Source: Thermomicrobiales bacterium (GTDB lineage Bacteria; Chloroflexota; Chloroflexia; Thermomicrobiales; UBA6265). Taken from it: a DNA stretch of 44,318 bases. The DNA is taken from contig DASYWB010000112.1 of assembly GCA_035936495.1 (NCBI GenBank), forward strand, positions 1-44,318. The letters are read 5' to 3'. The translations under genes were made by a program, and so were the position numbers. The notes under the pieces are model-generated. The model worked only from the letters and a program-made list of their open reading frames with translations. It did not search any database and was not told where the DNA came from. This document shows positions 474 through 24,374 of this stretch, one piece after another; the stretch's first letter is position 1, and every line of letters begins with the position of its first letter.

Positions 474-514
474 ATAAGCGTTCTCGGAACGCTCCGTATC
501 GTCGTCGGCGCACC

Positions 515-1000
515 ATGCCCCACGCTGGTCTCGCCGTCAAGCCCTGGCATGAAGAGCGGCGAATCATGCTATCGCCCTCGTCTACCGTGTCCGCTACGAT
601 GTCGGATCATCACACCTTGCGTGAGATGGATTGGGAGCGGCTCGGTGACGAAGAAGACGAGCGGCCGATTACCCGGCAACGCGTCGGGGCAACGGTGCGC
701 GAAGAGAGCGGGGTGACGTTGGAAACGCTCGCTGGCCAGACCGGCATCTCGGCATCACACACGTCGCGCATGGAGCGTGGCCTCACTATGCCAAGCGACG
801 ACGCGCTTGCCCGAATCGCCACGGCTCTTGGGAGCGCCCTCCCGACCCTCGCGGCGGAAGAGGCAACAACGAAGGCGGTCGATGCGAATCTCGACGCCAT
901 CCTTACCAGGTTTGGCGTGTCCGAGGACGCGCGGGTGGACCTGCTGCGGCAGACACCGATCACACGGGCCGAGCCGGCCACCGTACTCGACCGGGACTAG
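515..1000 (+). CDS. XRE-family helix-turn-helix transcriptional regulator
   Basis: The HTH core reads RVGATVREESGVTLETLAGQTGISASHTSRMERGLTMPSDDALARIATAL. It is divergent from the PPC gene. The start is uncertain: in-frame ATGs at 515, 566 and 599 all lack a clear SD. Confidence 0.7.
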   Translation: MPHAGLAVKPWHEERRIMLSPSSTVSATMSDHHTLREMDWERLGDEEDERPITRQRVGATVREESGVTLETLAGQTGISASHTSRMERGLTMPSDDALARIATALGSALPTLAAEEATTKAVDANLDAILTRFGVSEDARVDLLRQTPITRAEPATVLDRD

Positions 1001-1277
1001 GGAGTCTATGTACAAGGCACAGCCGAAACCGCTGATCCTGCACTGCACGGCGGATGCCCTAGCGGTCGCAGCAGACTAGCCCACCACACTGAAGCCACGA
1101 GCACGGCGCTGGGAACATCCTCCTGGCGCCGTTCGCTATGTGGTGCGATAAAATATTTTAAGCCCACCCCGCTTCCTAATTCTGAGCTACCATCATACGG
1201 TCCATCCTCGTAATGCTAAAGGGGGAACGTAAATCGTCCTACTTGCCGGCCATCGCCGATTGGAACGTGGAGGAACC

Positions 1278-1433
1278 ATGGCGTCCGAAGCCGCCAACGC
1301 ACCGGCCCGCGCAATAGCGCAAAGACAGCGCGGCCCGGGGACTGGGTGTGACGCGCCGACCTTCTTCGTCAAGACCATGGAGGAGCAGATCGGCCGCCTG
1401 CTCGACCGGGTGGCGATGCCGATTGAGCGTTGA
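1278..1433 (+). CDS. small hypothetical protein (51 aa)
   Basis: GGAGG-N4-ATG at 1278 with TGA at 1431-1433. About 80 percent of third codon positions are G or C, like the neighbouring genes. It lies downstream of an AT-rich patch (gataaaatattttaag, about 1148-1165). It is below the ORF-track size cutoff and has no recognisable family. Confidence 0.3.
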   Translation: MASEAANAPARAIAQRQRGPGTGCDAPTFFVKTMEEQIGRLLDRVAMPIER

Positions 1434-1547
1434 TTGGCAACGGCGAGCCGTGGACTGCCAGGACAGTCGCGGAGGAGGGGTGCGGTCAGCCCGACCAGAG
1501 GACACCGGGCGCGGCGAACCTGCGGTGCTTGGCCGCGGCGGTAAGCT

Positions 1548-2306
1548 ATGATGGTCTGCGAGTATGGACAGGACCTGGCGACTTCGCGAGGTGGTTGGGA
1601 TCGTGGAGACGGCGTGAAGGGGACGAGGAATAACCCGGCGGTGAGAAGTTCCGCTCCTCCGACGACCGTCTGGCTGGTCCGTCACGCCGAGGCGAACAAT
1701 CCGAACCAGGTTCTTTACGGCCGGCTCCCCAGGTTTCATCTGAGTGAGCGAGGTCGCGAGCAGGCTGAGAGCGTCGCCGCGTTCTTCGCGGACCGGCCGG
1801 TGGCGGCCATCTACACGAGCCCACTGCTCCGGGCCCGGCAGACGGGGCGTGTCATCGCCCAGCACCACCCGGAAGCAACGATGCATCGTTCGCTGCTCCT
1901 CCACGAAGTCGGGAGCGCCTGGCAGGGGAGCGAGTTCGCCTCGCTGAAGCCGGGGTTCAGCACGTACGAGGACCGGCGGGAGCCGGACGACGAGTCGATT
2001 GAGGATATCCAGCGGCGGATGATCGCGTTCGTGGAACGGGTGCGCCGCCGCCACCCAGGGCAAGCCGTCGTCGCCGTTAGTCACGGCGATCCCATCACGA
2101 TCCTGCGACTCGCCCTCAGCGGCCGGCCCGTTACCCATGCTGCCATGCGGGGGCCGGACTACGCTGGCCTCTGTTCCGTCACCGAGGTCACCTTCCCGCC
2201 GGGCGGCGAGCCTCAGGTGTCCTATCTGACTGTCCCGGGGCTCGCCGATCCATCGGGTGGGTCGACCGAGGGGAAACTGCAGGCGGCCGATGAGGAGACG
2301 ACCTGA
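1548..2306 (+). CDS. histidine phosphatase family protein (phosphoglycerate-mutase-like)
   Basis: It carries the RHG-type motif VWLVRHAEANN, then LSERGREQA, IYTSPLLRARQT and the second catalytic His in AVSHGDPI. The likely true start is GTG at 1641 (GAGGAA about 10 nt upstream). Confidence 0.8.
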   Translation: MMVCEYGQDLATSRGGWDRGDGVKGTRNNPAVRSSAPPTTVWLVRHAEANNPNQVLYGRLPRFHLSERGREQAESVAAFFADRPVAAIYTSPLLRARQTGRVIAQHHPEATMHRSLLLHEVGSAWQGSEFASLKPGFSTYEDRREPDDESIEDIQRRMIAFVERVRRRHPGQAVVAVSHGDPITILRLALSGRPVTHAAMRGPDYAGLCSVTEVTFPPGGEPQVSYLTVPGLADPSGGSTEGKLQAADEETT

Positions 2307-2387
2307 TCCACCAGCGAGGGATTGCGGGTACGTCTACAACCATGTTCGACATCGTCGAGGGTAAGACGCCGCGGTTATAGCTGGTGG

Positions 2388-2759
2388 TTATGGGTTGCGG
2401 CGGCGAAGGATCTCGATGGCGGAACCGATGAGAACGCCACCGTCGAGGCGGACGTTGGGCTTGGTGACCCGAACTCGGACGGCTTCGACCGGCGGATGGC
2501 TCTCAAGGACTGCCGAGGCAATCCGCTCCGCCACGGCCTCGGTCAAGCTGAGGGGCGGACCCTCGACGACGCGGCGGACCTGACGGTAGACGTCGCTGTA
2601 GTCGATTGTCCGGGCGAGGTCATCGCTGAGGCCAGCGGCGCGAAGGTCACAGTGTAGCTCCACGTCCACGACGAAGCGCTGCCCGAGCTCGCGCTCGGCC
2701 GCGATGGTCCCATGGTGACCAAAGAAGAGCATGCCTTCCAGCACAATCCTGTCGTCCAT
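2388..2759 (-). CDS. folB: 7,8-dihydroneopterin aldolase
   Basis: The 123-aa product from ATG 2757-2759 reads MDDRIVLEGMLFFGHHGTIAAERELGQRFVVDVEL...TIDYSDVY, a classic FolB tunnel-fold signature. The longer 208-aa track ORF has a junk-like N-terminus. Confidence 0.85.
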   Translation of the reverse strand: MDDRIVLEGMLFFGHHGTIAAERELGQRFVVDVELHCDLRAAGLSDDLARTIDYSDVYRQVRRVVEGPPLSLTEAVAERIASAVLESHPPVEAVRVRVTKPNVRLDGGVLIGSAIEILRRRNP

Positions 2760-2846
2760 TGTCCGCCGCCACTCCGCTCTCGAAACCACCGTCCGGGAGG
2801 CCGGAGTATAACCCGGGCCTCGCCCGGCTAGTACTATAATCGCTCC
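2760..2846. promoter_or_regulatory. divergent promoter region between folB and the reductase gene
   Basis: A perfect TATAAT sits at 2835-2840, 6 nt before the ATG at 2847 and with no SD in between, which suggests a leaderless transcript. On the opposite strand, TATACT (2805-2810) lies about 45 nt upstream of the folB ATG. Confidence 0.4.
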
Positions 2847-3563
2847 ATGGATGGTGAGGTCTTCGCCCCCGGTTCCTCCGGAGGACCGCGGCCGCTCGTG
2901 ACGGTCAGCTATGCCCAAACGCTCGACGGGCGACTCGCGACCCGGACGGGAAGCTCGCGGTGGATCAGTGGGGCGGAGTCGCTCCGATTCGCCCATGAGT
3001 TGCGCGCGAGCCACGATGCGATCATGGTCGGCGCTGGTACGGTCTGCCTGGATGATCCGCGCCTAACCGTCCGCCTCGCGCAGGGGCGTGATCCGCTCCG
3101 GGTCATCGTGGACAGCACGCTGCGCATCCCGCTGACGGCAGCGGTTCTCGCCTCGGGTGCTGCCCAGGGAACGGTGCTGGTCGTGACGGAGCGAGCCCCG
3201 GCTGAGCGCCGGGCCGAAGCGATGGCGCTGGGGGCGACCGTCCTGCCCGTTCCGGTCGACGCTCAGGGCCGCGTCTCTCTCCCCACGGCGCTTGCGATGC
3301 TCGGCGAACGGGGGGTGCGCTCGGTGATGGTGGAAGGGGGAGCGCGACTGATCACCTCCCTCCTGCGCGATCGTTTGGTCGATCGCCTCGCGATCTGCAC
3401 GGCTCCGCTGATCCTGGGCACTGGGATCGACGCGGTCGGCGACCTGGGGATCATCGATCTCGGCCGGGCGCTGCGACTGGATCAGGCGCGGGCGACGCCA
3501 TACGGCGAGGATCTGATCATCCAGGGACGGGTGGTCTACCCGGAGGCCGGCGATGGCAACTGA
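2847..3563 (+). CDS. RibD C-terminal-type diaminohydroxyphosphoribosylaminopyrimidine / 5-amino-6-(5-phosphoribosylamino)uracil reductase (reductase domain only)
   Basis: The motifs VTVSYAQTLDGRLATRTGSSRWISGAESLRFAHELRASHDAIMVGAGTVCLDDPRLTVR and VMVEGGARL match the RibD_C/Rib7 reductase pattern. No deaminase domain is present. Confidence 0.8.
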   Translation: MDGEVFAPGSSGGPRPLVTVSYAQTLDGRLATRTGSSRWISGAESLRFAHELRASHDAIMVGAGTVCLDDPRLTVRLAQGRDPLRVIVDSTLRIPLTAAVLASGAAQGTVLVVTERAPAERRAEAMALGATVLPVPVDAQGRVSLPTALAMLGERGVRSVMVEGGARLITSLLRDRLVDRLAICTAPLILGTGIDAVGDLGIIDLGRALRLDQARATPYGEDLIIQGRVVYPEAGDGN

Positions 3564-4602
3564 GCGGGCGCCGATCGAGGCGACGGCACTCTGGCTCACC
3601 GCCCCGCGTACGGTGGAGTTCCGGCGAGAAGTCGTCCAGCCCCCAGGCCCGGGCGAGGCCCGGGTCCGCACGATTGCGTCGGCCATCAGCCAGGGGACCG
3701 AGTTGCTCGCCTATCGCGGCGAGGTTCCGCATGACCTGCCGCTCGATTTGCCCACACTGGCCGGCAGCTTCGCGTTTCCGATCAAGTATGGCTACGCGTC
3801 CGTCGGTCGCGTCCTCGACGTCGGTGCCGGCGTTGAGTCGTGCACCGAGGGCGATCTCGTCTTCGCTCTCTACCCGCACCAGACCGCCTACGTCGTCCCC
3901 GCGCCCATGGCAGTTCGCCTGCCTCCCGACCTCGACCCGCTCCTCGGCGTCTTCACCGCCAATCTGGAGACGGCTGTCAACGTGCTCCTCGATATGCCGT
4001 TGCGGCTGGGGGAAACCGTGGTCGTCTTCGGCCAGGGAACCGTTGGGCTTCTGATATGCCAGTTGCTGAGGCGAGCGGGCGCGGGATACGTGATGGCGGT
4101 TGACCCCCTTTCCGCACGGCGGGCGTTGGCGCGACGGATCGGCGCGGACGAGGCCACCGCGCCCGGTGAAGATCTCGTCGATCGCGTCCGAGCGTTGACG
4201 AGGGGGCGCGGTGCCGATGTCGCGATCGAGGCGAGTGGGAATCCGGCGGCTCTCCAAGCCGCGTTGGACGTGGTCGCCACCGAGGGGACCGTCGTCGGCG
4301 TGTCGTGGTACGGAACCAAGCCGGTGCCGCTCGTGCTCGGAGGGCACTTCCATCGCGGCCGGGTCCGGCTCCGTTCGTCTCAGGTGGGGCGAATCAACCC
4401 CGCGCTGGCTCCCCGCTGGGATCACGTGCGGCGTCAGGAACTCGTGACTGAACTCCTGCCGCAGCTGCACCTCGCGGACCTCATCACGCGCCGGGTGCCC
4501 TTCCATGAGGCGCCGGACGCCTTCCGGCTCATCGATGAGCGCCCAGCGGAAACGGTGCAGACCGTCCTGACCTACCACGGTGGAGGACTCGAGGATCATT
4601 GA
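3553..4602 (+). CDS. medium-chain dehydrogenase/reductase (alcohol dehydrogenase-like, zinc ligands not evident)
   Basis: It has a GroES-like N-domain and the Rossmann motif VVVFGQGTVGLLICQLL. The canonical GHE and Cys zinc ligands are replaced (ISQGTE, GYASVG). Its start overlaps the reductase stop by 11 nt. Confidence 0.75.
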   Translation: MATERAPIEATALWLTAPRTVEFRREVVQPPGPGEARVRTIASAISQGTELLAYRGEVPHDLPLDLPTLAGSFAFPIKYGYASVGRVLDVGAGVESCTEGDLVFALYPHQTAYVVPAPMAVRLPPDLDPLLGVFTANLETAVNVLLDMPLRLGETVVVFGQGTVGLLICQLLRRAGAGYVMAVDPLSARRALARRIGADEATAPGEDLVDRVRALTRGRGADVAIEASGNPAALQAALDVVATEGTVVGVSWYGTKPVPLVLGGHFHRGRVRLRSSQVGRINPALAPRWDHVRRQELVTELLPQLHLADLITRRVPFHEAPDAFRLIDERPAETVQTVLTYHGGGLEDH

Positions 4603-4642
4603 TCGTCGTTCGGATCGTATGTGGAAGGAGCACTGAGGACCG

Positions 4643-5044
4643 GTGCTGAAAGCTGGGGGCAAGGTGTACGAAATTGGGGTGGTAGCACAATTCGAGGCGG
4701 CGCACCGGCTCATCGGTGATTTCGGGCCGGCCACGCGCACGCACGGCCACACCTATCGGCTTGAGGTCATGCTGCGCGGGGAGTACCTGCGAGACGACTC
4801 CACCCTCTACGACCTGGCACAGCTCCGGGCCGACGTCGACGCTCTCGCTGCCACGCTGCACTACCGGGATCTCGCCGAGGTGCCGGGGCTCGAGGGAGTG
4901 AACACGACGGCCGAGGCCGTGGCCGGCTACTGCTGGGAGGCATTGGCGCCGAGTCTCCGCGGCCACGGCCTCATGTCGCTCGTGGTCCGCGTCTGGGAGT
5001 CGCCCCAGGCCTACGCGGCACGCGAGGACGTTCTAGGCTCCTAG
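4643..5044 (+). CDS. 6-pyruvoyl-tetrahydropterin synthase / QueD family (COG0720) protein
   Basis: FEAAHRL and THGHTYRLEV supply the three zinc-binding histidines of the PTPS T-fold. The product is 133 aa with a GTG start. Confidence 0.85.
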   Translation: MLKAGGKVYEIGVVAQFEAAHRLIGDFGPATRTHGHTYRLEVMLRGEYLRDDSTLYDLAQLRADVDALAATLHYRDLAEVPGLEGVNTTAEAVAGYCWEALAPSLRGHGLMSLVVRVWESPQAYAAREDVLGS

Positions 5045-5069
5045 CTGCGCCCACGTGGATCATCCAATT

Positions 5070-5864
5070 TCAGATCCGCTCGGCGACGATTGCGAGCTTG
5101 CGAACGCGGCTCGTCGAGAGCCATCCGGCCCACGTCGCGTGGGCGCTCAGCGCTTGGCGCCATGCCGCTTCCCCTATATCGGCGGCGATGCTGCTCCGTT
5201 CTCTCTGAAGTGCCGTGACGAGGCGGCGGGCGACCTCGGCGTGCACTGGGGTGCGGTCCTTCAGCGAGTGCGTGCTAAAGCCAGAGGTGGCGAGGAGTGC
5301 CAGGAAGTCAGCCTCGGGGATCAGCCAGACCGGCTCTTCGCCGAAGATGTCGCCAACCTCCTCACCGCTCATCGGCTGACCTGCCTCCAGTGTGAGGGCG
5401 AACCGGCCGCGAGATCCGAGGATCCCTGCCACGGCAGCGAGCAGATCCGCTTTGTCGGGGATGGAAAGCATCGTCTCGAGTAGGAGCACCGCATCGAGTT
5501 CCGTTGCGAACGGTGGCCGCGCGGCGTCGCCCACGACGAAGGATGCGTGGTCGGCAAGATTCCGCCGGTTCGCCTCGGACCGGGCCACATGGATCACTTC
5601 CGGCAAGCGGTCGACGCCCACGATCTGGCAGCCCAAGGTCTCCGCGAGGAAGAGGGCTGGACCGGCTGTACCGCAGCACAGATCCGCGACCCGCGAAGCG
5701 GCGCCGATGTTGGCGGCGCTCGCCAGGGCGAGTATCTCCGCGGTGGGCATGAAGCTCTCTTGGCCCACGAATGTCTCACCGAAGGCCGCGAGACGGGCAG
5801 GGTAGAGTGCGGCGTTCCACTCGGCACGGGTCACCGTCCTTAGCGCCAAGAGATCCTCCTTCAC
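5070..5864 (-). CDS. class I SAM-dependent methyltransferase
   Basis: SAM motif I reads VADLCCGTAGPALFLAE, with post-I IVGVD and FDAVLLLE-type motifs. The start is either GTG at 5864 or TTG at 5849, which follows AAGGAGGA. Confidence 0.75.
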   Translation of the reverse strand: MKEDLLALRTVTRAEWNAALYPARLAAFGETFVGQESFMPTAEILALASAANIGAASRVADLCCGTAGPALFLAETLGCQIVGVDRLPEVIHVARSEANRRNLADHASFVVGDAARPPFATELDAVLLLETMLSIPDKADLLAAVAGILGSRGRFALTLEAGQPMSGEEVGDIFGEEPVWLIPEADFLALLATSGFSTHSLKDRTPVHAEVARRLVTALQRERSSIAADIGEAAWRQALSAHATWAGWLSTSRVRKLAIVAERI

Positions 5865-5968
5865 CGCCCGCTGACACGGTCGCCCGACGCGGGTCCGACG
5901 ACAACCGGCACGTCCCTTGCAGGGCTATCGCACGGACGATACCGTTTTTGCCCGTCGTTGCGGCATCG

Positions 5969-6811
5969 ATGTCTGGAGTAATGCCAATGCACGCCACGTG
6001 CTCAGCCGAGTGGGGAGCGCCGTCCGGGGCTGGGAGGCGAGTGCCGCACCCATGGCTCGCGGCTGATCTCGCCCGCCTGTACGACGTGTTCCCGTTCGAC
6101 GCGGACGTACCCTATTACCTTAGCCTTGCCGGCGAGCAGAGAGGACCGGTGCTGGAAGTAGCGAGCGGCAGCGGGCGTGTGCTGTTGCCCCTTGCTAGGT
6201 CCGGTCATCGCCTGACTGGCCTCGACGCCTCCCCGGCGATGCTGGCATTGGCTCGCGAGAAGCTGCAGGCGGCAGGACCGGAAGTGATGGATCGTGCCAC
6301 CCTGATTGAGGCCGACATGCGTTCCTTCGCTCTTGGCGAGACGTTCGGACTGGCGATTATCGCCGCCAAGAGTTTCGCGTATCTGCTCACCCCGGCCGAG
6401 CAGCTCCAGGCGCTCCGGACGATCGCCAGCCACCTCCAACCGGGCGGCCTGCTCGCTCTCGACCTGCATCATCCGCGCCCTGCATGGTTGCTCGAACCGC
6501 CGGGCAGCCTCCGCCAGGATCTCGCCCAGGATGTACCCGAACAGGGCGTGACGGTGCTGCGCACGGAGACGGCGGTCAGTACCGACCTTGCGAACCAAAT
6601 CCGCGTCATCCGTTCCGTCTACGAGATCGTCGCGGCCGACGGCAGCGTGACGAAGCGGTTCGTTGAGTGGCCCTATCGTTACATCTATCGTTTTGAGGCG
6701 GAGCATCTGCTGGAACGCGCTGGATTGACGGTCGAGGCGCTCTACGGCGGGTACGAGCACGAGCCGTTCACCTCCGATTCGCCGATGATGCTGCTCCTGG
6801 CGCGCCGCTGA
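5969..6811 (+). CDS. class I SAM-dependent methyltransferase
   Basis: Motif I is VLEVASGSGRVLLPLARSG, followed by LTGLDASPAML and LQPGGLLAL. The track ORF begins at 5771 but its first 66 codons overlap the divergent gene and look non-coding. Candidate ATGs are at 5969, 5981 and 5987. Confidence 0.75.
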   Translation: MSGVMPMHATCSAEWGAPSGAGRRVPHPWLAADLARLYDVFPFDADVPYYLSLAGEQRGPVLEVASGSGRVLLPLARSGHRLTGLDASPAMLALAREKLQAAGPEVMDRATLIEADMRSFALGETFGLAIIAAKSFAYLLTPAEQLQALRTIASHLQPGGLLALDLHHPRPAWLLEPPGSLRQDLAQDVPEQGVTVLRTETAVSTDLANQIRVIRSVYEIVAADGSVTKRFVEWPYRYIYRFEAEHLLERAGLTVEALYGGYEHEPFTSDSPMMLLLARR

Positions 6812-6875
6812 GTCCCTCTGCCACTCCCTATGACCGTATTTGGCGGCCTTGCCGACGACCGGGGATGAAGGGTGG

Positions 6876-7949
6876 TCACTCCGTCAGGGCTTCCCGGACC
6901 GCGGCGAAGAAGAGGGCCGCTGTCTGCTCCCAGGTGGGCCGGGCGAGAGCGCGGACGCGTGCTGCTTCGCCTAGGCGGTGTCGTAGATGCTCATCCTCGG
7001 CGAGGAGCGCCAGGGAGCCTGCCAAGGCCTGAATATCACCGGGCGGCAAGACAAACCCTTCCTGGCCATCCTCGGCGAGATATGGCAAGTTCCCGGCGCA
7101 CCAACCGACGACAGGCAGGCCCGCCGCCATCGCCTCACCGTAGACCGTGCCGTACGGCTCCTTCAGGCTCGGCAGGACGAAGGAGTCTGCCGCGGCATAG
7201 AGAGCGGCGACGGCCCCGATCGAGACCGGTCCATGGACGACGACACGTCCGCTGAGATCAGGCTGGGCCAGCCGCCGTCGCAGCCGGGCGGCGTAGGGTG
7301 GATCGGCGCGGTCGTCGCCGACGAGATGCAAGGTTGCCATATCGGGGGGGAGGCGGGAGAAGGCGTCGAGCAGGTCGTGGATCCCCTTCCGCTCAACCCA
7401 GTTGCCGACACAGAGGAAGGCCGCTTGACGGCCACACCGGAGGTCACCCGGCCATGGGCCAGGGGCGGGGGCGACGTCGCGGCCTGGCGGCACGACGCGC
7501 AGCCGTTCCCGTGGTGTACCATCCCGCACCAATTGGTCGGCGAGCGCATCGCTGGCGACCATGAGGAGGCGGGCGCGCCGGTAGGCCAGCTGATCCAGGG
7601 ACGCTTGCACCGCGGCGCGGATCGGACCGTGGTCAATGCCTCCAGGGGGCTGGTGTAGCATCCCGATCAGCGGGACGGCAGGCGAACGCACCAGGGTCCA
7701 AGGTCCGACGTATGCGGCCGCGATACTGTCGAGGATGAATGCGCCGGCGTCAGCCGCCATCGCTTCGCGAAGCACGCGGGGCGCGGCGAGCGCTGGGAGC
7801 GGGAACAGGGATTCGGGAAATGAGACGAAGGTGATGTGAGCGCCATGGTGCGGGGCAAGGTCGGCGATGCGCCGGTGGTAGAGGTAGCCGCCGGTCAGCC
7901 GGCCCGGATCGCCGAGGGTGAGCAAGGCAATTTTTAGGATGCGGGTCAT
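6876..7949 (-). CDS. GT4-family (group 1) glycosyltransferase
   Basis: The N-terminus MTRILKIALLTLGDPGRLTGGY and the C-terminal E-x7-E region (PSLKEPYGTVYGEAMAAGLPVV) are typical of GT-B GT4 enzymes. Confidence 0.8.
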   Translation of the reverse strand: MTRILKIALLTLGDPGRLTGGYLYHRRIADLAPHHGAHITFVSFPESLFPLPALAAPRVLREAMAADAGAFILDSIAAAYVGPWTLVRSPAVPLIGMLHQPPGGIDHGPIRAAVQASLDQLAYRRARLLMVASDALADQLVRDGTPRERLRVVPPGRDVAPAPGPWPGDLRCGRQAAFLCVGNWVERKGIHDLLDAFSRLPPDMATLHLVGDDRADPPYAARLRRRLAQPDLSGRVVVHGPVSIGAVAALYAAADSFVLPSLKEPYGTVYGEAMAAGLPVVGWCAGNLPYLAEDGQEGFVLPPGDIQALAGSLALLAEDEHLRHRLGEAARVRALARPTWEQTAALFFAAVREALTE

Positions 7950-9045
7950 TCACGTCGCTCCCACGCCGTTCGGGATATCCGGGTTATTGGGCGGCGGCGA
8001 GCGCTTTCCGCTCGAACTCTCGCGTGCCCTGGCGCGCCACGTGGCCTGCCAGTTGGTGACGTTCGGACCCGAGTCCCGCGTGGAACGCGAGGCGAGCGGG
8101 CTGACGATCCAGACCCTGCGCTACCGAGTACTCCTCCACGGGCACCCGGCGCATCCCGTCGCCCCCGGGTTGCTAGCCGTTCTTCGTCACGCGGATATCG
8201 TCCACACACATCATATGCGGAGCACACCGAGTCGCCTAGCGGCACTTGGTGGGCGTGCGCTCCAGAAGCGACTGGCGGTGACTGATCATGGACTGCAGGG
8301 CGGGGATTGGTTCGGCGTGTTGCCGCGTCTGTTCGATCGTTTCCTGATGGTCTCGGCATACTCAGCACGTGAGCTGCACGCTCCTCCCGGGCGTAGCCGG
8401 GTCATCTATGGGGGAGCCGATCCCAATCGGTACAAGCCAGATCCCGCCGGTCGCCGCGAGGGTGTGCTATTCGTGGGGCGCCTGACCCCGCACAAAGGCG
8501 TCGATCGCCTGATCGACGCGCTCCCCCTCAATGCCCGGCTCCTCGTGGCTGGCTCGGCCGGTCACGATCCATTGCCGCCGGAGAGCGAGTATCCTGCCCT
8601 GCTTCGCCGGCTAGCAACCGGGCGCGACGTGACGTTCCTCGGGCCGGTCTCAGATGACAACTTGCCGGCACTGTACCGACAGGCAGCCGTCTTCGTCCTG
8701 CCGTCCGTGGAGCGGACATGCTACGGGCGGGATATTCGTGTCTCTGAGCTGTTGGGACTGGTGGTCATCGAGGCGATGGCGAGCGGAACTCCTGTGATCT
8801 GCAGCCGATTGGGTGGACTGCCGGAGATCGTCGAGGACGGCGTGACGGGGTTTCTGGTCGAGCCGGGCAACGTCGAGGAGTTGCGCGAGCGCCTGGACGA
8901 GATGCTACGCAACCCGGTGCTGGCTCAACAGATGGGCCGCCGTGCCCGCGAGTCGGTGGTGGAGCGGTTTACGTGGGACGCGTGTGCGCGGCGATGCCTG
9001 GCCGCGTACCAGGAGATGTGGGTTGCGGGTGATGAGGCTCTCTGA
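7939..9045 (+). CDS. GT4-family (group 1) glycosyltransferase
   Basis: The N-terminus MRVIHVAPTPFG and the region PSVERTCYGRDIRVSELLGLVVIEAMASGTPVICSRLGGLPEIVEDGVTGFLV are GT4-like. The ATG at 7939 is preferred over the track start at 7918. Confidence 0.8.
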   Translation: MRVIHVAPTPFGISGLLGGGERFPLELSRALARHVACQLVTFGPESRVEREASGLTIQTLRYRVLLHGHPAHPVAPGLLAVLRHADIVHTHHMRSTPSRLAALGGRALQKRLAVTDHGLQGGDWFGVLPRLFDRFLMVSAYSARELHAPPGRSRVIYGGADPNRYKPDPAGRREGVLFVGRLTPHKGVDRLIDALPLNARLLVAGSAGHDPLPPESEYPALLRRLATGRDVTFLGPVSDDNLPALYRQAAVFVLPSVERTCYGRDIRVSELLGLVVIEAMASGTPVICSRLGGLPEIVEDGVTGFLVEPGNVEELRERLDEMLRNPVLAQQMGRRARESVVERFTWDACARRCLAAYQEMWVAGDEAL

Positions 9046-9091
9046 TTGGGAGCCTGGCCGAGAGTAGCCGCCCACGGCCCGTCGTTCCCAG

Positions 9092-9715
9092 TCAGCCACG
9101 GAGATCGCCAGTGACCTGGCCGAGGGACAACAGGTGCCCCATCCGCTCCTCTTTCGTGCGAAGGTACTGGAGGTTATCGGGATTAGGGCGGACGGGTAGG
9201 GGCAGGCGCTCGACGACCTCGATCCCGTGCTCCTCGAGACCGGCGATTTTGGCCGGGTTATTCGTGAGCAGACGCACCTGATGTACGCCGAGGTCGCGGA
9301 GGATCGCGGCGGCGTAACCGTAGTCACGGACATCTTCTGGGAGACCGAGGGCACGGTTGGCCTCAACCGTGTCGAGGCCCTGGTCCTGCAGCGCATAGGC
9401 GCGCAGCTTGTTGATCAGGCCAATGCCCCGGCCCTCCTGGCGCAGATAAAGCAAGACGCCTCGGCCCTGCTCCTGGATGCGCAGCATCGCGGACGCCAGT
9501 TGCTCGCCGCAGTCGCAGCGACACGAGCCGAAGACGTCGCCGGTCATGCATTCGGAGTGCAGCCGGGCCAGGACCGGTCCGCCACGATCGACCTGCCCTA
9601 AGGCGAGCGCCAACTGATCCTGGCCGTCGGACGATCGGTACCCGGCAAGGCGGAAAGTCCCGTACCGGGTCGGCAGTTGGGTCTCCACCAGGCGGTGGGC
9701 AGACGGTGATGTCAA
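9092..9715 (-). CDS. ribA: GTP cyclohydrolase II (stand-alone, no DHBP synthase domain)
   Basis: It has the zinc triad in [20 protein letters not shown], plus [23 protein letters not shown] and TVEANRALG. The best start is TTG at 9713-9715, preceded by GAAAGGGA. The 288-aa track ORF has an Arg/Trp/Cys-rich junk N-terminus. Confidence 0.85.
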
Positions 9716-18418: not shown

Positions 18419-19438
18419 ATGGATGATGAGATCACGCAACGGCGCGGCGCGTCTGGTCCCGTGATACGCGAAAGAGGGGAAATAGCCGGCGGGTCGTCAC
18501 TCTCGGTCCCGGGGCGACGGGGCGTCGCTCGCTCCACTCCTACTCGCCGCTCACTTTGGTCGCGCGTGGTCCATTCGGAAGTATTGCTCTTCACCCTCTT
18601 CGTCGCGCCCAATCTGCTTCTCTTCGGCATCTTCACGTACTGGCCGATGCTCTACAGCGGCTATCTGAGCCTGGTGAGCTGGGATTTGCTCTCGGCCACC
18701 AAGCCCTTCGTGGGGCTCGCCAACTACCGCTATCTTCTCGGCGACGATATCTTCCGGCTCGTCTTGCGCAACACGTTTGTCTTCACGGTCGGCTCGGTCG
18801 GCGGCTCGCTCGCCCTTGGACTCGGCGTTGCCCTGCTGCTCAACCAGCCACTACGTGGGCGCGACGGCGCCCGGGCGGTCGTCTTCGCCCCGACACTGCT
18901 GAGCGGCGCCGCGATCAGTATCATCTGGGTCTATATCTTTGATCCTCGCTTCGGCCTGATGGCCAAGCTTCTCGGCTTTGTCAATATCGCCTCTCCCACC
19001 TGGCTGCGTGACACGACCTGGTCTATGGTCGCGATCATCATCGTCTATGTCTGGAAGAATCTTGGCTTCGCGACGGTCATCTACCTCGCTGGGCTCCAGA
19101 CGATTCCGCGTGATCTCTACGAAGCGGCCAAGGTCGATGGCGCCGGGCCATTCAGCCGCTTCCGCAACGTCACGCTTCCGATGCTCTCTCCCATCAGCTT
19201 CTTCCTCCTGGTGACCTCGATCTTGACGACTTTTCAGGCCTTCGACATCATCTCCGTCATGACCCAGGGCGGTCCCGTCGACGCCACCAACACCTTGATC
19301 TACTACGTTTACGAGCAGGGGTTCGTGGCCTTCAACGCGGGCCGTGCCGCCGCGGCGTCATGGGTTCTGTTCATCATCATGTTGGCCGTAACACTCATCC
19401 AGCTCCGTTACTCGGAACGGAAGGTCCACTATGGATAG
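18419..19438 (+). CDS. carbohydrate ABC transporter permease (CUT1, MalF/UgpA-like)
   Basis: It has six predicted TM segments and the EAA loop LYEAAKVDGAGPFSRFRNVTLPML. An alternative GTG start lies at 18461. Confidence 0.8.
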   Translation: MDDEITQRRGASGPVIRERGEIAGGSSLSVPGRRGVARSTPTRRSLWSRVVHSEVLLFTLFVAPNLLLFGIFTYWPMLYSGYLSLVSWDLLSATKPFVGLANYRYLLGDDIFRLVLRNTFVFTVGSVGGSLALGLGVALLLNQPLRGRDGARAVVFAPTLLSGAAISIIWVYIFDPRFGLMAKLLGFVNIASPTWLRDTTWSMVAIIIVYVWKNLGFATVIYLAGLQTIPRDLYEAAKVDGAGPFSRFRNVTLPMLSPISFFLLVTSILTTFQAFDIISVMTQGGPVDATNTLIYYVYEQGFVAFNAGRAAAASWVLFIIMLAVTLIQLRYSERKVHYG

Positions 19439-20321
19439 TCGAGCGCTCCAGTTCCGGATCACTCGTTTGGCTGGGTACGGCGCCATGATCCTGATTCTCC
19501 TCGTGATCGGCGCTCCCCTCTTCTGGATGGTGACCGGCGCCTTCAAGACGAATCAGGAGATCCGGGCACTCCCGACCGTCTGGTGGCCCGAGCTGCTGCA
19601 ATGGACCAGCCTGGCCGACCTTCGCGCGTCCTACGTCAATTTCACGGAAGCCTGGGCCGCGGCGCCCTTTGGCCGCTTTTACCTCAACAGCACCATCATT
19701 ACGCTCGCCGGCATGACGCTCGAGGTCGTCAACGCGACGCTCACTGCCTACGCGCTCGCCTTCCTCCGCTTCCCCAAGAAGAACCTCGTCTTCATCCTCG
19801 TCCTCGCCGCGCTGATGGTGCCTAATCAGGTCACGATCTTGCCTAACTATGTCTTCCTGGGGCGGACCATGGTCGATCTCTTCGGACAGAACTGGATCAA
19901 TACCTATCAGGGCATCATCTTGCCGGGCGCCTCCGTGGCCTACGGCACGTTCCTCCTTCGTCAAGCCTTCATGGGCCTGCCCCGGGAAGTGCTCGACGCC
20001 GCCAAGGTGGACGGCTGCGGTCACCTGCGCCTCCTCTGGGACATGGTCATCCCCATGGCGCGGCCCGTCCTGATCACCTTCGGTCTCATCTCGATGGTCG
20101 CGAAGTGGAACGATTACCTCTGGCCTCTGGTCGTGACGACAAACGACAATGACCGGCCCCTGACGGTCGGCCTCACTTATCTCTTCAACCAGGAAGGCAA
20201 CACCGACTGGGGCGTCGTCATGGCAGCGACATGCTTCGTGATCGCCCCCTTGCTCCTCATCTATCTTTGGGCGCAACGGTTCATCATCGAGGGGATGACG
20301 GCTGGAGCGACCAAAGGATGA
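19431..20321 (+). CDS. carbohydrate ABC transporter permease (CUT1, MalG/UgpE-like)
   Basis: The EAA loop reads VLDAAKVDGCGHLRLLWDMVIPMARP. It overlaps the upstream permease by 8 nt. Confidence 0.85.
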   Translation: MDSRALQFRITRLAGYGAMILILLVIGAPLFWMVTGAFKTNQEIRALPTVWWPELLQWTSLADLRASYVNFTEAWAAAPFGRFYLNSTIITLAGMTLEVVNATLTAYALAFLRFPKKNLVFILVLAALMVPNQVTILPNYVFLGRTMVDLFGQNWINTYQGIILPGASVAYGTFLLRQAFMGLPREVLDAAKVDGCGHLRLLWDMVIPMARPVLITFGLISMVAKWNDYLWPLVVTTNDNDRPLTVGLTYLFNQEGNTDWGVVMAATCFVIAPLLLIYLWAQRFIIEGMTAGATKG

Positions 20322-21760: not shown

Positions 21761-21801
21761 ACAACAGATGCAAAGAGCCTGATCGTGAGCTGATCACTCG
21801 A

Positions 21802-21854
21802 CCCCTTCTCCCGAAATCGGGAGAAGGGGTTGGGTCCCCGAGTTCAGAGGGGGC
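21802..21854 (+). repeat. intergenic hairpin-plus-tail repeat, copy 1 (also a likely bidirectional terminator)
   Basis: A perfect 12-bp stem ccccttctcccg-aaat-cgggagaagggg is followed by ttgggtccccgagttcagagggggc. It lies between convergent genes and is about 81 percent identical to the copy at 38077-38127. Confidence 0.65.
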
Positions 21855-21862
21855 CGCTTTCC

Positions 21863-22447
21863 CTACAGCCCGATGGCAATCGCGACCGCGATACCCATCG
21901 CCAGGAGTTGCGTCGCCGCGACGAGCCGGGACCACTCGCCGTGGGTGACTAGCCACACCCCGAAGGCGTCTCCGCCGATGCCGAGCCTGCGCGGCAAGAG
22001 CAGGAACGCCCAGACCGACCATCCCCGGACGCATCCATAGATGCCATAGAGCAAGGCTCCGAGCAGAGGATCGCCGAGGAGAAACGCGCTACAGGGGATC
22101 GCGTACCACAGCCAGAAGCCGATCCGGCTCGTCGCCCCAATGCCGAGCGCGGCGCCGTTGAGGCTTGCCCACCGGAGCGCGCCGGCGTTCATCCACCGCT
22201 GCGGGGTCTCCCCGTCCCATTGCAGGAGGCGCGGCGGCCTCGGGCCGAGCTCCAGGGCGCCAATACCGATCGCGATGACCGCCAGCAAGCTCGCGACCGC
22301 GACGCGGGCGTTGAACGAGATTGCCTCACCGGCGAATCCAAGCACCCAACCTGCCAGCACGCTCGCGAGCGTCGCCGCCAGCGCAAAGACGACCGCCTTC
22401 GCGATCCACGACGTCCCGGCTTGATTACGCTGGTGAGCGGCATGCAC
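21863..22447 (-). CDS. polytopic integral membrane protein, family unknown (downstream part of an interrupted reading frame)
   Basis: The 194-aa ORF has about 5-6 hydrophobic spans and a PC dipeptide in a TM segment (YAIPCSAFLLGDP). The GTG at 22447 has no SD. The same frame continues upstream to the ATG at 22630 across a single TGA. Confidence 0.6.
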   Translation of the reverse strand: MHAAHQRNQAGTSWIAKAVVFALAATLASVLAGWVLGFAGEAISFNARVAVASLLAVIAIGIGALELGPRPPRLLQWDGETPQRWMNAGALRWASLNGAALGIGATSRIGFWLWYAIPCSAFLLGDPLLGALLYGIYGCVRGWSVWAFLLLPRRLGIGGDAFGVWLVTHGEWSRLVAATQLLAMGIAVAIAIGL

Positions 22448-22474
22448 GATGCCGAACGCGGCGTTCGGCCCTCA

Positions 22475-22630
22475 GGGCAGCGTCTGTTGCGCGAGCGCAA
22501 CGAGCGCCGCCGAAACGGCGAGGAGGGCAACGAGCCACGCTTCACCATTCGGAGTCAGCCGAATCAGGAGGCCAAGGGCGGCTCCCCCGCCTACCCCGAG
22601 CGCGAGGAGCTTGCGACCGAGCGGCCTCAT
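22475..22630 (-). other. 52-codon in-frame upstream segment of the membrane gene, ending at TGA 22472-22474
   Basis: ATG 22628-22630 opens MRPLGRKLLALGVGGGAALGLLIRLTPNGEAWLVALLAVSAALVALAQQTLP (two hydrophobic spans), followed by TGA and then GPNAAFGIV-HAAHQ... of the 194-aa ORF in the same frame. Confidence 0.5.
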
Positions 22631-22643
22631 CCTGATTCAGGCC

Positions 22644-23186
22644 TTACTGGCGAATCGAGCGACTACCACCATCGGTTGGCGGCGGCGAACCGCTAGCCCC
22701 GTCCCGACTCCGCCGGGCAGGCGGTGACGGTGCTGGAACTGGGCTTGGCGTAGGTGCAGGGGACGGAGAGGAGCCGCCAGGAACCCGGATGCCATCACCA
22801 CCCGAGGACCCTGTACACGAGGTGTAGGCATAGGAGCGGCAAATGCAGGTGCTCTCGGCACTCCGGTACCAGTCACAACAGCGGTAGTACTTGCGGCACC
22901 CGTTGGCGTCGGCCGTGGTTGCCACCAGCCAGCATTGATTTCCACCACAGGTGTAAGCCGGGCCGTTGTAGCACTCGGTGCATCGTCCCCCGGAGTCACA
23001 CGAGTCGCAGCCGGGCGCGCCATTGCAGAGCGGTGGCGTCGGTGCGGCGAGGCTGGATTTCGGAGCGACCGCTCGCGTCGCCACGCCGAAGAGCGCTCCG
23101 CCCAGGAGCGTGAGAAACCGGCGCCGGCCAACGCGTGTCGCCGTGAGGCCCTCCCGCCCCTGACCGCTGCCCATTTCAGCCACCAT
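22644..23186 (-). CDS. TAT-signal cysteine-rich secreted protein, amine-dehydrogenase light-chain (MauA)-like core plus Pro/Ser-rich tail
   Basis: The twin-arginine signal is VGRRRFLTLLGGALFG...SSLAAP. The core has 13 Cys and 2 Trp in about 70 residues: LCNGAPGCDSCDSGGRCTECYNGPAYTCGGNQCWLVATTADANGCRKYYRCCDWYRSAESTCICRSYAYTSC. The tail reads SSPSPAPTPSPVPAPSPP. The ATG at 23186 follows GGAGGA-N7, and other in-frame ATGs lie at 23201, 23192 and 23174. Confidence 0.7.
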   Translation of the reverse strand: MVAEMGSGQGREGLTATRVGRRRFLTLLGGALFGVATRAVAPKSSLAAPTPPLCNGAPGCDSCDSGGRCTECYNGPAYTCGGNQCWLVATTADANGCRKYYRCCDWYRSAESTCICRSYAYTSCTGSSGGDGIRVPGGSSPSPAPTPSPVPAPSPPARRSRDGASGSPPPTDGGSRSIRQ

Positions 23187-23784
23187 GCCCATGTCCTCCA
23201 TCCGCCCGCGCTGCCGCCAAACCAGGGTCCGTCGCCCTCTTCTCGATGAACTGTATCAAATCAGCCGTGGAATCCAAAGGGGGCGCTTTCGCCGTCACGG
23301 TGCCGGACTCCACGCGAAGCGCAAACGGCACCCGTTGAATCGAAAGGCCGCGGGCCAGGGCCGTCGCTTGTGGGTCTCGAACATGCCGGACACCTGCCGG
23401 CAGCATCGCGACTAACCCATCCGCGAGCTCACGCCGCCCGGGGATGAGCGCGAGCACCCTTCCCTCTTTCGGAATCCCGGCCCGCCCGAGCCCCTCGGCC
23501 ATATCGCGGCACGGTCCACAGGTCGCGGAGAGGAGCAACAGATGCGTCGTGCCGCTGCCCAGCTCCGGCAGTGAACGCGCCACCTCGTCCGGCAAACGGC
23601 TGCCAATTTCAGGACCCTCGGCCATGGGATCGTAAAACGATCCAATGGCGCCGACTCCCTCTCCGAGCCGGTCGAGCCGCACCATGAGAATCGCCACCTG
23701 GCGGATCGTCAGGACCACGGCCAACGTCAGTAGTCCCATCCAGATGGCAGCTAGGACCAGGGCGATCGTGCCGAGGCCGCTCAT
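23176..23784 (-). CDS. membrane-anchored thioredoxin-fold protein (MauD/TlpA-like, CGPC active site)
   Basis: It has an N-terminal TM helix (IALVLAAIWMGLLTLAVVLTI) and then a thioredoxin-like domain with LLLLSATCGPCRDM. Its ATG overlaps the upstream stop as ATGA (23781-23784). Confidence 0.75.
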   Translation of the reverse strand: MSGLGTIALVLAAIWMGLLTLAVVLTIRQVAILMVRLDRLGEGVGAIGSFYDPMAEGPEIGSRLPDEVARSLPELGSGTTHLLLLSATCGPCRDMAEGLGRAGIPKEGRVLALIPGRRELADGLVAMLPAGVRHVRDPQATALARGLSIQRVPFALRVESGTVTAKAPPLDSTADLIQFIEKRATDPGLAAARADGGHGHGG

Positions 23785-24374
23785 GCTTCAGCCACCGGCG
23801 CGGGATCAAAGACTCCCCGGTTCCAGCGGAGCAAGGGTGGTACTTGCCGGATCAAGACGACCATGCCGAAGAGCGATGCGGCGGCCACGAGCTCCAGCCA
23901 TGGCTCGCCGGTATCCCAACGCCAGCGTCGGGGCGCACCGAGGGCTAAGACGGTGGCTAATAGCGCGAGCGTTCCCGTCCGCGCCAGTGTCCACCGTGAG
24001 AGCGCGCCATCACTCTCGCCGAAACAGAAGCAGGCAAACTTCTCACCACCGCGCAGGCCCCGGGCAATCAACCCGGTAAAGAGCCAGAGCAACGGAACGG
24101 CGACGAAGACCGCGACGGCCGGCACGAGCGCCAGCCCGACCGCCAGCGCCACTTCCACCGCGCCAAGGAGCCAGCCCAGAATCGGGAGGGGCCTCCGCAC
24201 GATCTGAAAGTCAACCAAGGCCATCGCCGCGAGCGCGGGCCGTCGCAGCTTGACGATGCCGCTGAGGGCAAAGACCGCCGCCAAGAACCATGACAGCACA
24301 CCGGACCCTGCCGGCGCCATCAGGGCCTCCAGGCCGTCGCGAAGCATCGCGGCCGCAAGTGCGAATCCTCCCAA
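23781..24374 (-). CDS. MauE/DoxX-family redox-associated membrane protein
   Basis: FLAAVFALSGIVKLRRPALAAMAL, then VEVALAVGLAL, and the signature FACFCFGES (the CGCFG-type motif) occur across 4-5 TM helices. The TTG start at 24374 follows GAGGAG-N8. Confidence 0.75.
   Translation of the reverse strand: MGGFALAAAMLRDGLEALMAPAGSGVLSWFLAAVFALSGIVKLRRPALAAMALVDFQIVRRPLPILGWLLGAVEVALAVGLALVPAVAVFVAVPLLWLFTGLIARGLRGGEKFACFCFGESDGALSRWTLARTGTLALLATVLALGAPRRWRWDTGEPWLELVAAASLFGMVVLIRQVPPLLRWNRGVFDPAPVAEA

Follow-up and report, generated by a model that had tools for sequence, protein, structure and literature searches.

A Mau-type operon in Thermomicrobiales couples a cysteine-rich Tat-signal protein to a MauF homologue with a putative selenocysteine

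We analysed a 44,318-nucleotide stretch of DNA from a Thermomicrobiales bacterium (contig DASYWB010000112.1 of assembly GCA_035936495.1), referred to here as the window. Four closely packed minus-strand genes and three associated features make up the locus:

23781..24374, minus strand: gene 1, a MauE-family membrane protein (PF07291) carrying the CXC-F-G active-site motif as CFCFG
23176..23784, minus strand: gene 2, a MauD homologue (profile comparison), membrane-anchored at its N terminus, with CGPC in its thioredoxin-like domain
22644..23201, minus strand: gene 3, a Tat-signal Cys-rich mini-protein (sequence, HMM and AF2 evidence) with a signal at about 23046-23129, a 13-Cys core at 22815-23027 and a Pro/Ser-rich tail at 22647-22814
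21863..22630, minus strand: gene 4, a MauF homologue (hhalign) of 255 aa when read through an in-frame UGA, a putative selenoprotein
22472..22474, minus strand: the in-frame TGA, which would encode selenocysteine within Q-Q-T-L-P-U-G-P-N-A (88-locus alignment)
22438..22454, minus strand: a SECIS-like stem-loop, CGGCAU-CGUGC-AUGCCG, the RNAalifold consensus hairpin, starting 17 nt past the UGA
21801..21830, minus strand: a 13-bp inverted repeat, ACCCCTTCTCCCG-ATTT-CGGGAGAAGGGGT, read directly off the sequence

An ORF check of the window recovered the four co-directional genes at the positions given by the first-pass annotation (23781-24374, 23176-23784, 22644-23201 and 21863-22630), with products of 197, 202 and 185 aa for genes 1 to 3. 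The tight spacing it described was found throughout (an ATGA overlap at 23781-23784, a 26-nt overlap at 23176-23201 and a 13-nt gap at 22631-22643), as were the motifs CFCFG and CGPC, the twin-arginine GRRRFL and the core with 13 Cys and 2 Trp. The inverted repeat sits between the end of gene 4 and a convergent solute-binding-protein gene and is the probable end of the operon; the consensus terminator scan did not report it because it lacks a T-run.

The cassette occurs in about 90 loci of Thermomicrobiales, Rubrobacteraceae and Thermoleophilaceae. Among the 42 related loci with at least 2.1 kb of upstream sequence, 33 keep the same gene order, so the arrangement is not due to chance, and the remaining nine mostly carry divergent Cys-rich genes. 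The proposed check of co-occurrence was borne out, the cassette strictly accompanying the Cys-rich Tat-signal protein. Insertion contexts are unrelated, with tsaE and ABC transporters flanking the cassette in the window and polysaccharide clusters in Rubrobacter. In two phyla or more the four genes travel together, unaccompanied by MauB, MauG or amicyanin. Using Paracoccus denitrificans queries, tblastn returned no match to MauB, MauG, amicyanin, MauJ or MauM/N in the 44-kb window, in line with the earlier statement that heavy chain, amicyanin and MauG are absent from it, and none in roughly 494 kb of related loci (about 95 loci).

Gene 1, previously described as MauE/DoxX-type, is MauE by Pfam, matching PF07291 well above the curated cut-off (E=2.7e-17, 63.7 bits, cut-off 27). 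CFCFG is present in 39 of 54 family members and another C-x-C-F-G in 10 more (49/54). MauE has been shown to act as a DsbB-like oxidase of general role that mostly occurs uncoupled from MauA; its CXC active site precedes F-G, and it works with a thioredoxin-fold partner (bioRxiv 10.64898/2026.03.05.709764). The description of gene 2 as MauD/TlpA-like stood as far as homology to MauD is concerned: the family profile aligns with P. denitrificans MauD over 157 columns spanning the anchor and the CxxC (hhalign 95.8%, E=7e-9), BLASTP gives E=0.002, and tblastn with MauD finds matches at the gene-2 position in several related loci. The accompanying TIGRFAM check (TIGR02661) gave no match; gene 2 has no match in Pfam and none in NCBIfam at E <= 1. 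Membership of the TIGR02661 equivalog was ruled out, gene 2 lying below the cut-off, and P. denitrificans MauD itself scores 383.7 bits. These comparisons support genes 1 and 2 as true Mau-type maturation genes, homologues of MauE and MauD.

Homologues of gene 3 are few (10 among 5.8e9 proteins; 15 representatives among 1.8e9), and its core of about 70-75 residues is highly conserved across phyla, with variable flanks. The Cys pattern is retained among them: the invariant positions are 12 Cys, a Trp and an Asp, with the 13th Cys nearly so; the C-W and C-C-D motifs are likewise invariant, and the spacings include C-x2-C, C-x5-C and CC. Odd Cys counts (13, 15 or 17) characterize 41 of 44 distinct mature domains, and additional Cys arise pairwise. 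The AF2 model is a compact all-beta fold (pLDDT 88.8). The Pro-rich tail, once suggested as a surface tether, is lineage-specific, being confined to Thermomicrobiales. Neither HMM, PDB profile nor Foldseek searches placed gene 3 in a known family.

The fourth gene had been described as a polytopic membrane protein. It is a MauF homologue, but its open reading frame is interrupted by the in-frame TGA at 22472-22474; both the TGA and the kinship to MauF had gone unrecognised. Read through, gene 4 aligns end to end with the MauF family (hhalign 96.4%, E=1.3e-9, 243 columns), and the UGA falls on the invariant Cys79 of MauF, which lies in S-P-C-G-Y-S after the second hydrophobic helix and corresponds to L-P-U-G here. 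No Pfam or NCBIfam model represents MauF itself. MauF is linked weakly to DsbD_2, the domain of the CcdA/DsbD membrane thiol-disulfide transporters, with one of 14 members matching PF13386 (E=3.2e-5) and source annotations naming CcdA. Whereas CcdA and DsbD use two membrane cysteines, the gene 4 family has one Sec and no conserved partner Cys. Its topology is ambiguous, with two hydrophobic stretches before the Sec and K/R-rich loops after it, and the Sec could lie towards the cytoplasmic face. The close family (the U-G-P-N clade) contains no Cys member, an observation that runs against a Sec reading; Cys homologues of gene 4 are found only as distant proteobacterial MauF proteins. Searches of NCBIfam and of a selenoproteome review from 2026 gave no Sec-MauF family. 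The text of the review mentions neither MauE, methylamine, CcdA nor transmembrane; a word search of it for membrane yielded only an outer-membrane beta-barrel family, although a DsbD-fusion family, TsoB, is listed.

Conserved hairpins follow the UGA at distances of 9-50 nt, many with a CGUGC loop and with lineage-dependent positions (11, 17 or 28 nt). Cells of the consensus hairpin are 96.9% paired compared with 19-52% in slid controls, and its pair 36-46 is seen as GU, AU and CG. Equivalent hairpins in other lineages show compensatory changes in six of seven pairs, and the observed values were reached by none of 500 shuffles. The paired Ala-to-Met substitutions that separate GPNAVYGIAS from GPNMVYVIMS correspond to the two arms of hairpin A. 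Rfam contains no match for the SECIS-like hairpin and no curated SECIS model fits it, which, together with the shift in offset between lineages, counts against the Sec reading.

Gene callers split gene 4 into pieces of 52-54 and 172-194 aa, and database homologues all end at the TGA, with query coverage of at most 77%. The TGA could accordingly be a true stop, gene 4 being a 52-aa single-helix peptide and a translationally coupled 194-aa membrane protein. All gene callers and NCBI annotate it so, a GTG or ATG follows soon after the TGA in many loci, and the Sec machinery (selA, selB, selD and tRNA-Sec) was found neither in the window nor in the 494 kb of related loci. We nevertheless regard this as very improbable. 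In the alignment, which is collinear from end to end, such a split would strike the sole invariant membrane Cys of MauF. All 88 of 88 loci have TGA at this codon, never TAA or TAG, and covarying hairpins follow it. Between the TGA and the nearest start the encoded residues are conserved with free third positions, and in related loci residues are kept on either side of the UGA while synonymous sites vary: at codons -1, +1 and +2 the third position has an entropy of 1.7-1.8 bits, whereas positions 1 and 2 stay at 0-0.34 bits. One related locus (L004) has GTC in place of the sole GTG start codon nearby and nonetheless keeps the frame conserved, and the start codon downstream of the TGA is likewise missing in Rubrobacter loci. 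Within the operon, genes 1 and 2 themselves end in TGA, which speaks against a genome-wide reassignment. At the level of aligned sequences, these data establish gene 4 as a single reading frame in which the membrane Cys of MauF is replaced by a universally conserved UGA. We infer that this UGA is decoded as Sec and that gene 4 most likely is a selenocysteine-containing MauF. The Sec trait is documented in Rubrobacter xylanophilus and in Chloroflexi (PMC1794560), and in bacterial selenoproteins Sec typically stands in for a redox Cys (PMC1794560; PMC13188914).

The nature of the gene 3 product admits several accounts. It may be a truncated homologue of the MADH/AADH light chain with a TTQ- or CTQ-like cofactor, i.e., a stand-alone quinoprotein. 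Its place directly after mauD, the mauA position, beside MauE, MauD and MauF homologues would fit this, as would its MauA-like Tat-type leader, its all-beta, disulfide-rich fold with an invariant Trp adjoining Cys and an odd Cys count, and the divergent PF02975 light chains that Thermomicrobia possess alongside Sec-MauF. The MauA strings from which such kinship had been proposed (ICDCSGG, SWVASC, AYRDCCGY and CPC) are genuine, matching PDB 1mg2_B exactly, and the region of MauA Trp108, the second TTQ Trp, is indeed missing from gene 3, as had been stated. The kinship itself, however, was not detected in HMM and profile-profile tests. None of 11 gene 3 members matched PF02975 or TIGR02659 at E <= 10, and a PDB profile search retrieved no MADH or AADH chain. 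Against a MauA/AauA/T. roseum family profile the core profile reached an hhalign probability of 2%, with a short match that differs from the alignment first proposed, and the 82% score of full-length gene 3 against MauA-type sequences was contributed by signal peptides. The proposed structural comparison was equally negative, in that Foldseek with the confident AF2 model found no amine dehydrogenase light chain and nothing in the PDB at E < 1, although Foldseek is weak on small disulfide-rich folds. The cassette also has no conserved heavy chain, MauG, flavoprotein or radical-SAM enzyme, and the second Trp (CCDW) is replaced by Phe or Tyr in some members. A light-chain identity is therefore unlikely. 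We give somewhat more room, still as a doubtful proposition, to a RiPP-like biosynthetic cluster whose product is an antimicrobial or signalling secreted cystine-knot peptide tailored or folded by the Mau-type proteins. decRiPPter has picked out mauE/mauD clusters whose precursors hold eight or more Cys, in genomes with no other mau genes (PMC7794033), and the small secreted product with conserved core and variable flanks, as well as the unrelated neighbourhoods of the cassette, would agree with such an origin. Yet the cassette has no conserved protease, exporter or immunity gene, export is by a Tat signal and not a leader peptide, and a core of about 75 residues that is invariant across phyla better fits a housekeeping or enzymatic role than a fast-evolving toxin. 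This account differs from the one we favour below solely in the product's role and is compatible with it. Lastly, gene 3 might bind Fe-S, Cu or metal in a metallothionein-like manner, acquiring its cofactor in the cytoplasm and leaving through Tat in folded form, with the redox proteins maintaining its thiol state. Tat signals are typical for cofactor-containing proteins, and 13 Cys in a core of about 70 residues with C-x2-C, C-x5-C and CC motifs would suit a metal site. MauE and MauD, however, are oxidising, disulfide-forming components, the extra Cys come in pairs as disulfides would give, the compact beta fold is predicted with high confidence in the absence of a ligand, and the cassette contains no metal chaperone or transporter, all of which makes metal binding quite improbable.

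One close relative of the cassette is the mauFBEDACJGMN cluster of P. denitrificans, in which MauF, MauE and MauD all have homologues in the cassette. The order mauE-mauD-mauA mirrors that of genes 1 to 3, with a small Tat-signal Cys-rich protein in third place, and the CXC-F-G, CxxC and P-C/U-G motifs are common to both. The cassette differs in lacking MauB, MauG, amicyanin, MauJ and MauM/N, in a substrate that is not detectably a PF02975 light chain, in a MauF homologue that follows the substrate gene whereas mauF leads the Paracoccus cluster, and in the UGA where MauF has a Cys codon. A second relative lies on the megaplasmid of Thermomicrobium roseum DSM 5159 (NC_011961, L008), which belongs, like the window's organism, to Thermomicrobiales. 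MauE is encoded there together with a thioredoxin-like protein and with a MauF homologue (96.5%) with a TGA at the same position (W-S-P-TGA-G-Y-S) that aligns to the same MauF Cys79, and a hairpin with a CGUGC loop, GGUCGA-CGUGC-UCGGCC, begins 11 nt past the UGA. This cluster differs in having as many as three copies of genuine PF02975 light chains (E=9e-9), each adjoining a protein of about 430 aa, and a MauE fused to a large domain similar to these proteins; such partner proteins are present neither in the window nor in the related loci. MauE as described by Gonzalez et al. 2026 (bioRxiv 10.64898/2026.03.05.709764) is treated as a generalist, with no mention of MauF or selenium; the cassette MauE, by contrast, is tied to one specific substrate and to Sec-MauF. 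Candidate RiPP clusters of Streptomyces contain an orphan mauE/mauD adjoining a small Cys-rich precursor (Kloosterman et al. 2020, PMC7794033), but they are uncharacterised candidates from another phylum-level lineage with no MauF homologue or selenoprotein reported. Given these Streptomyces precursors and the general oxidase role of MauE, the earlier suggestion that such a system is undescribed no longer fully holds. Bacterial selenoproteins of thiol-oxidoreductase-like type (DsbA-like, DsbG-like and thioredoxin-like) are a further group for comparison.

We consider it reasonably probable that the mauE-like, mauD-like, Cys-rich Tat-signal and mauF-like genes form a self-contained operon for a small secreted all-beta protein and its private thiol-redox maturation machinery. 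In the model we favour, the cassette is dedicated to the oxidative folding of a single secreted protein with a cysteine knot. MauE would act as a quinone-linked, DsbB-like oxidase that re-oxidises the membrane-anchored MauD-like thioredoxin-fold protein, which in turn would oxidise the mini-protein, forming about six extracytoplasmic disulfides. The MauF-like protein, a distant CcdA/DsbD relative, would provide a highly reactive selenol that does what the cysteine of MauF does in methylamine dehydrogenase maturation; the likeliest tasks are to reduce or reshuffle disulfides, or to deal with the Cys that the odd count leaves unpaired. A Tat signal normally means that folding precedes export, and this fits awkwardly with extracytoplasmic disulfide formation in gene 3. 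With its odd Cys and its conserved C-W and C-C-D motifs, the mini-protein could accommodate a cross-link or cofactor. An improbable extension of the model is a new protein-derived cofactor or cross-link, CTQ-like or thioether-like, in which the unpaired Cys and the Trp or Asp would be joined or oxidised, with the MauF Sec in the role otherwise played by MauG, a flavoprotein or a radical-SAM enzyme; if true, it would reveal the long-unknown catalytic role of MauF.

To our knowledge, no chemistry has ever been assigned to MauF, which is required for methylamine dehydrogenase. The presumed exchange of Cys and Sec at one MauF residue would mark this residue as the redox-active centre. Gene 4 represents a candidate new selenoprotein family of integral-membrane proteins, and known bacterial selenoproteins mostly have thioredoxin-like folds (PMC13188914). 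The database entries found for Sec-MauF all appear to be mis-annotated as truncated hypothetical proteins. Sec-MauF has a cultured carrier in T. roseum DSM 5159, which makes the prediction directly testable. In Actinomycetota and Chloroflexota of soil and desert, where the MauF/E/D module occurs, this trio would have found a second use, as a portable module that matures a wholly different cysteine-knotted secreted protein.

The first-pass annotation of this locus was confirmed in its overall observation. All four minus-strand ORFs were found where it had placed them, with the spacing it had described (ATGA overlap, 26-nt overlap and 13-nt gap), as were the CFCFG, CGPC and GRRRFL motifs and the core of 13 Cys and 2 Trp. 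The position of the fourth ORF was also correct, but its frame contains a TGA that had not been mentioned.

Features of the cassette in the window
23781–24374, minus strand: gene 1 ORF, 197 aa
23176–23784, minus strand: gene 2 ORF, 202 aa
22644–23201, minus strand: gene 3 ORF, 185 aa
21863–22630, minus strand: gene 4 frame, interrupted by an in-frame TGA
22472–22474, minus strand: the in-frame TGA of gene 4
21801–21830, minus strand: 13-bp inverted repeat between gene 4 and the convergent gene

The window, one contig of a Thermomicrobiales MAG, holds the cassette among unrelated housekeeping genes (tsaE, HAD hydrolase, ABC transporters). For gene 4, NCBI annotates a hypothetical protein of 194 aa that covers just the part after the TGA (P0011).

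We are highly confident that the UGA is translated within one MauF-like protein. In the first five loci, a short upstream ORF and a downstream ORF lie in one frame with the TGA between them, preceded by L-A-Q-Q-T-L-P and followed by G-P-N-A-A-F/Y-G-I-V-H. Scanning of species genomes and metagenomes yielded about 95 loci, and the codon is TGA in all of those covering the site (88/88). Third positions of codons −1, +1 and +2 are near random (1.7–1.8 bits) while first and second positions are fixed, and therefore translation runs through the TGA. TGA serves as a normal stop in genes 1 and 2 of this operon, which makes the recoding site-specific. Each of the 99 database homologues of gene 4 begins downstream of the TGA, and coverage is at most 77%. 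Alignment of the read-through profile with the MauF family runs from end to end (243 columns; hhalign 96.4%, E = 1.3e-9) and puts the UGA on the invariant MauF Cys79 (S-P-C-G-Y-S). Correspondence of selenocysteine (Sec) and Cys is a classical selenoprotein signature. The fourth gene very probably encodes a new membrane selenoprotein; no model of NCBIfam release 20 matches the read-through protein.

The region after the UGA carries predicted RNA structure. In the Thermomicrobiales group, RNAalifold predicts a hairpin (CGGCAU-CGUGC-AUGCCG) starting 17 nt past the UGA that is 96.9% paired, compared with 19–52% in slid controls, and one of its pairs is seen as CG, AU and GU. Two hairpins, A and B, are predicted for the other lineages (28 distinct sequences). 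Hairpin B, e.g., GUUCCGA-CGUGCA-UCGGAAC, displays compensatory changes at six of seven pairs, and its observed values were reached by none of 500 shuffles. Hairpin A accounts for a coupled protein change after the Sec, GPNAVYGIAS to GPNMVYVIMS (columns 25–41 of alignment A9; e.g., L062, L072, L077, L085 and L086). Both Ala-to-Met replacements arise from codon changes (GCG to AUG; CGC to CAU across a codon boundary) that sit on opposite arms of this hairpin; the amino-acid sequence is visibly shaped by RNA structure. When single sequences downstream of the UGA were folded, no z-score was significant, and the informative signal came from comparative analysis only. Since no Rfam family matched at the gathering or a permissive threshold and the hairpin offset from the UGA varies by lineage, the evidence for a SECIS element is good but not conclusive. 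As a separate observation, a perfect 8-bp hairpin, GCCGAACG-CCG-CGUUCGGC, directly follows the UGA in the window (22451–22469, minus strand); it is window-specific and not kept in relatives, and when the sequence is folded singly it competes with the conserved CGUGC-loop hairpin.

The Sec trait has been reported for Rubrobacter xylanophilus (five selenoproteins) and Chloroflexi (PMC1794560). The window contains no tRNA, and tblastn with E. coli SelA, SelB and SelD returned nothing in the window and 494 kb of related loci. A SelD tblastn against plasmids matched 168 records, with Thermomicrobium roseum not among the 60 of 168 matches listed.

Gene 1 encodes a clear MauE (PF07291, E = 2.7e-17, Pfam scan) with the C-x-C-F-G motif; a 2026 preprint describes MauE as a DsbB-like disulfide oxidase and identifies this motif as its active site (bioRxiv 10.64898/2026.03.05.709764). 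Gene 2 had no match in Pfam or NCBIfam scans; its family profile aligns with Paracoccus denitrificans MauD (hhalign 95.8%, E = 7e-9, 157 columns) across membrane anchor and CxxC. Gene 2 encodes a MauD homologue, but not the TIGR02661 equivalog. In one related locus (L001; ENA contig ctg148381, ERZ25070591), a second pair of MauE and an AhpC/TSA-type thioredoxin-fold protein (18444–19667) is encoded on the other strand, ~8 kb away from the cassette, and P. denitrificans MauD matches this pair (E = 7e-11) more strongly than the cassette's own MauD-like gene.

The Cys-rich family of gene 3 is rare, with 10 clusters among 5.8 billion proteins and 15 representatives among 1.8 billion proteins in an exhaustive profile search. 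Common to its members are a twin-arginine signal and a ~75-residue core in which 12 Cys are invariant and the 13th nearly so, together with invariant C-W and C-C-D. Of 44 distinct mature domains, 41 have 13, 15 or 17 Cys, all odd counts, with additional Cys coming two at a time, so that one Cys is systematically partnerless. In most members the sequence stops at the last Cys; a Pro/Ser-rich tail is found in Thermomicrobiales only. This tail (window 22647–22814, minus strand, and proteins P0001–P0007) has a conserved end, P-P-P-T-D-G-G...R-S-I-R-(R/Q/G), which was not found in any gene 3 member outside Thermomicrobiales and could act in sorting or attachment.

The likeness of gene 3 to the methylamine dehydrogenase light chain (MauA) proposed earlier was drawn from MauA strings that are genuine, but the alignment itself is without statistical support. 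Gene 3 matched neither PF02975 nor TIGR02659 in Pfam and NCBIfam scans, nor any PDB entry by phmmer or profile hmmsearch. Comparisons by hhalign with MauA and two T. roseum light chains were negative, and an eight-sequence MauA/AauA/T. roseum profile gave a probability of 2%. The AlphaFold model, all-beta and confident (pLDDT 88.8, 22-sequence alignment), had no Foldseek match. Two other results were discarded: an hhalign score of 82% obtained with signal peptides included, a Tat-leader artefact, and Foldseek matches from an initial AF2 run (10-sequence alignment, pLDDT 55), which was too poor for them to be meaningful. The sole recurring weak match joins another region. Gene 3 is thus a positional analogue of MauA and not a demonstrable homologue. 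The earlier interpretation is supported in part, for the Mau-type MauE and MauD homologues but not for light-chain homology.

Of 42 loci whose sequence extends 2.1 kb or more upstream of the TGA, 33 have MauE, MauD-like and Cys-rich genes in the same order, by HMM detection, and divergent loci hold recognizable Cys-rich variants retaining C-W...C-x2-Y-x-C-C-D. In two divergent loci with MauE-like, MauD-like and Sec-MauF-like genes (L091, L100), no Cys-rich gene was found in the interval of only about 120–170 nt that separates D from F; their substrate gene may be missing or located at another site. Carriers belong to Thermomicrobiales, Rubrobacter/Rubrobacteraceae and Thermoleophilaceae, plus one MAG labelled Anaerolineaceae. 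The first-pass claim that the 44 kb lack a heavy chain, amicyanin and MauG extends to every related locus: neither the window nor any of the loci contains MauB, MauG, amicyanin, MauJ, MauM/N or the T. roseum partner proteins. In five Rubrobacteraceae loci (L005–L007, L017, L018) the cassette lies inside polysaccharide biosynthesis clusters (Wzy_C, glycosyltransferases, sulfotransferase, Bac_transf, UDP-glucose dehydrogenase). L001 has an HTH/cupin regulator and a FAD_binding_2/Pyr_redox_2 flavoprotein between tsaE and the MauE gene (6784–8535); as these occur neither in the window nor in other loci, they are probably outside the cassette.

The cluster of T. roseum, a cultured organism, has genuine PF02975 light-chain homologues, with a protein of ~430 aa beside each. 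It contains up to three light-chain-like genes, each adjoining a 'hypothetical' protein of about 400–456 aa.

Features of the T. roseum DSM 5159 locus
Megaplasmid NC_011961, 475850–488068: locus L008, with the cluster at locus coordinates 510–9349
Light-chain-like gene 1: annotated, matches PF02975
Light-chain-like gene 2, ~5900–6315: unannotated
Light-chain-like gene 3, ~3772–4189: apparently split over two frames

Next come a MauE with a similar large domain fused at its N terminus, a thioredoxin-like protein and a MauF homologue whose frame contains a TGA (8744–8746). The latter is annotated only from 8756 (WP_012643071.1, 'hypothetical protein'); read upstream, it begins with an ATGA overlap and runs M-T-L-W-...-A-L-W-S-P-TGA-G-Y-S. 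Its read-through protein matches MauF (96.5%) with the UGA again on Cys79, and a hairpin, GGUCGA-CGUGC-UCGGCC, begins 11 nt past the UGA. Sec-MauF is thus not confined to the orphan cassette; with its putative Sec, it also serves true light chains in the order Thermomicrobiales.

What the comparisons demonstrate is homology to the Mau proteins, recoding of the UGA and joint inheritance of the four genes; we hold the functional model as a whole with moderate confidence. MauE would oxidize its thioredoxin-fold partner with quinone (bioRxiv 10.64898/2026.03.05.709764), and, following the literature, the MauD-like protein would hand disulfides to the exported mini-protein. MauF is weakly linked to DsbD_2/CcdA; the redox center of its homologue would be the putative Sec, and the protein may reshuffle or reduce disulfides, or handle the odd Cys. 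Simple hydropathy and positive-inside analysis assigned no membrane side to the Sec. The Tat signal of gene 3 fits poorly with post-export folding.

Several components are already known: orphan MauE (bioRxiv 10.64898/2026.03.05.709764), mauE/mauD beside Cys-rich precursors among Streptomyces candidates (PMC7794033), and the MauFED trio in mau clusters. We found no description in the literature of a MauF homologue with selenocysteine, of its SECIS-like element, or of the fixed four-gene cassette with this Cys-rich family, and literature searches on MauF, MauE, CcdA or DsbD with selenoproteins yielded nothing relevant to the gene 4 family. A 2026 review covers 119 prokaryotic selenoprotein families (PMC13188914); by keyword search, the words MauE, methylamine, CcdA and transmembrane are absent from it, and the family may bear another name there. 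The locus encodes a new form of the Mau maturation system.
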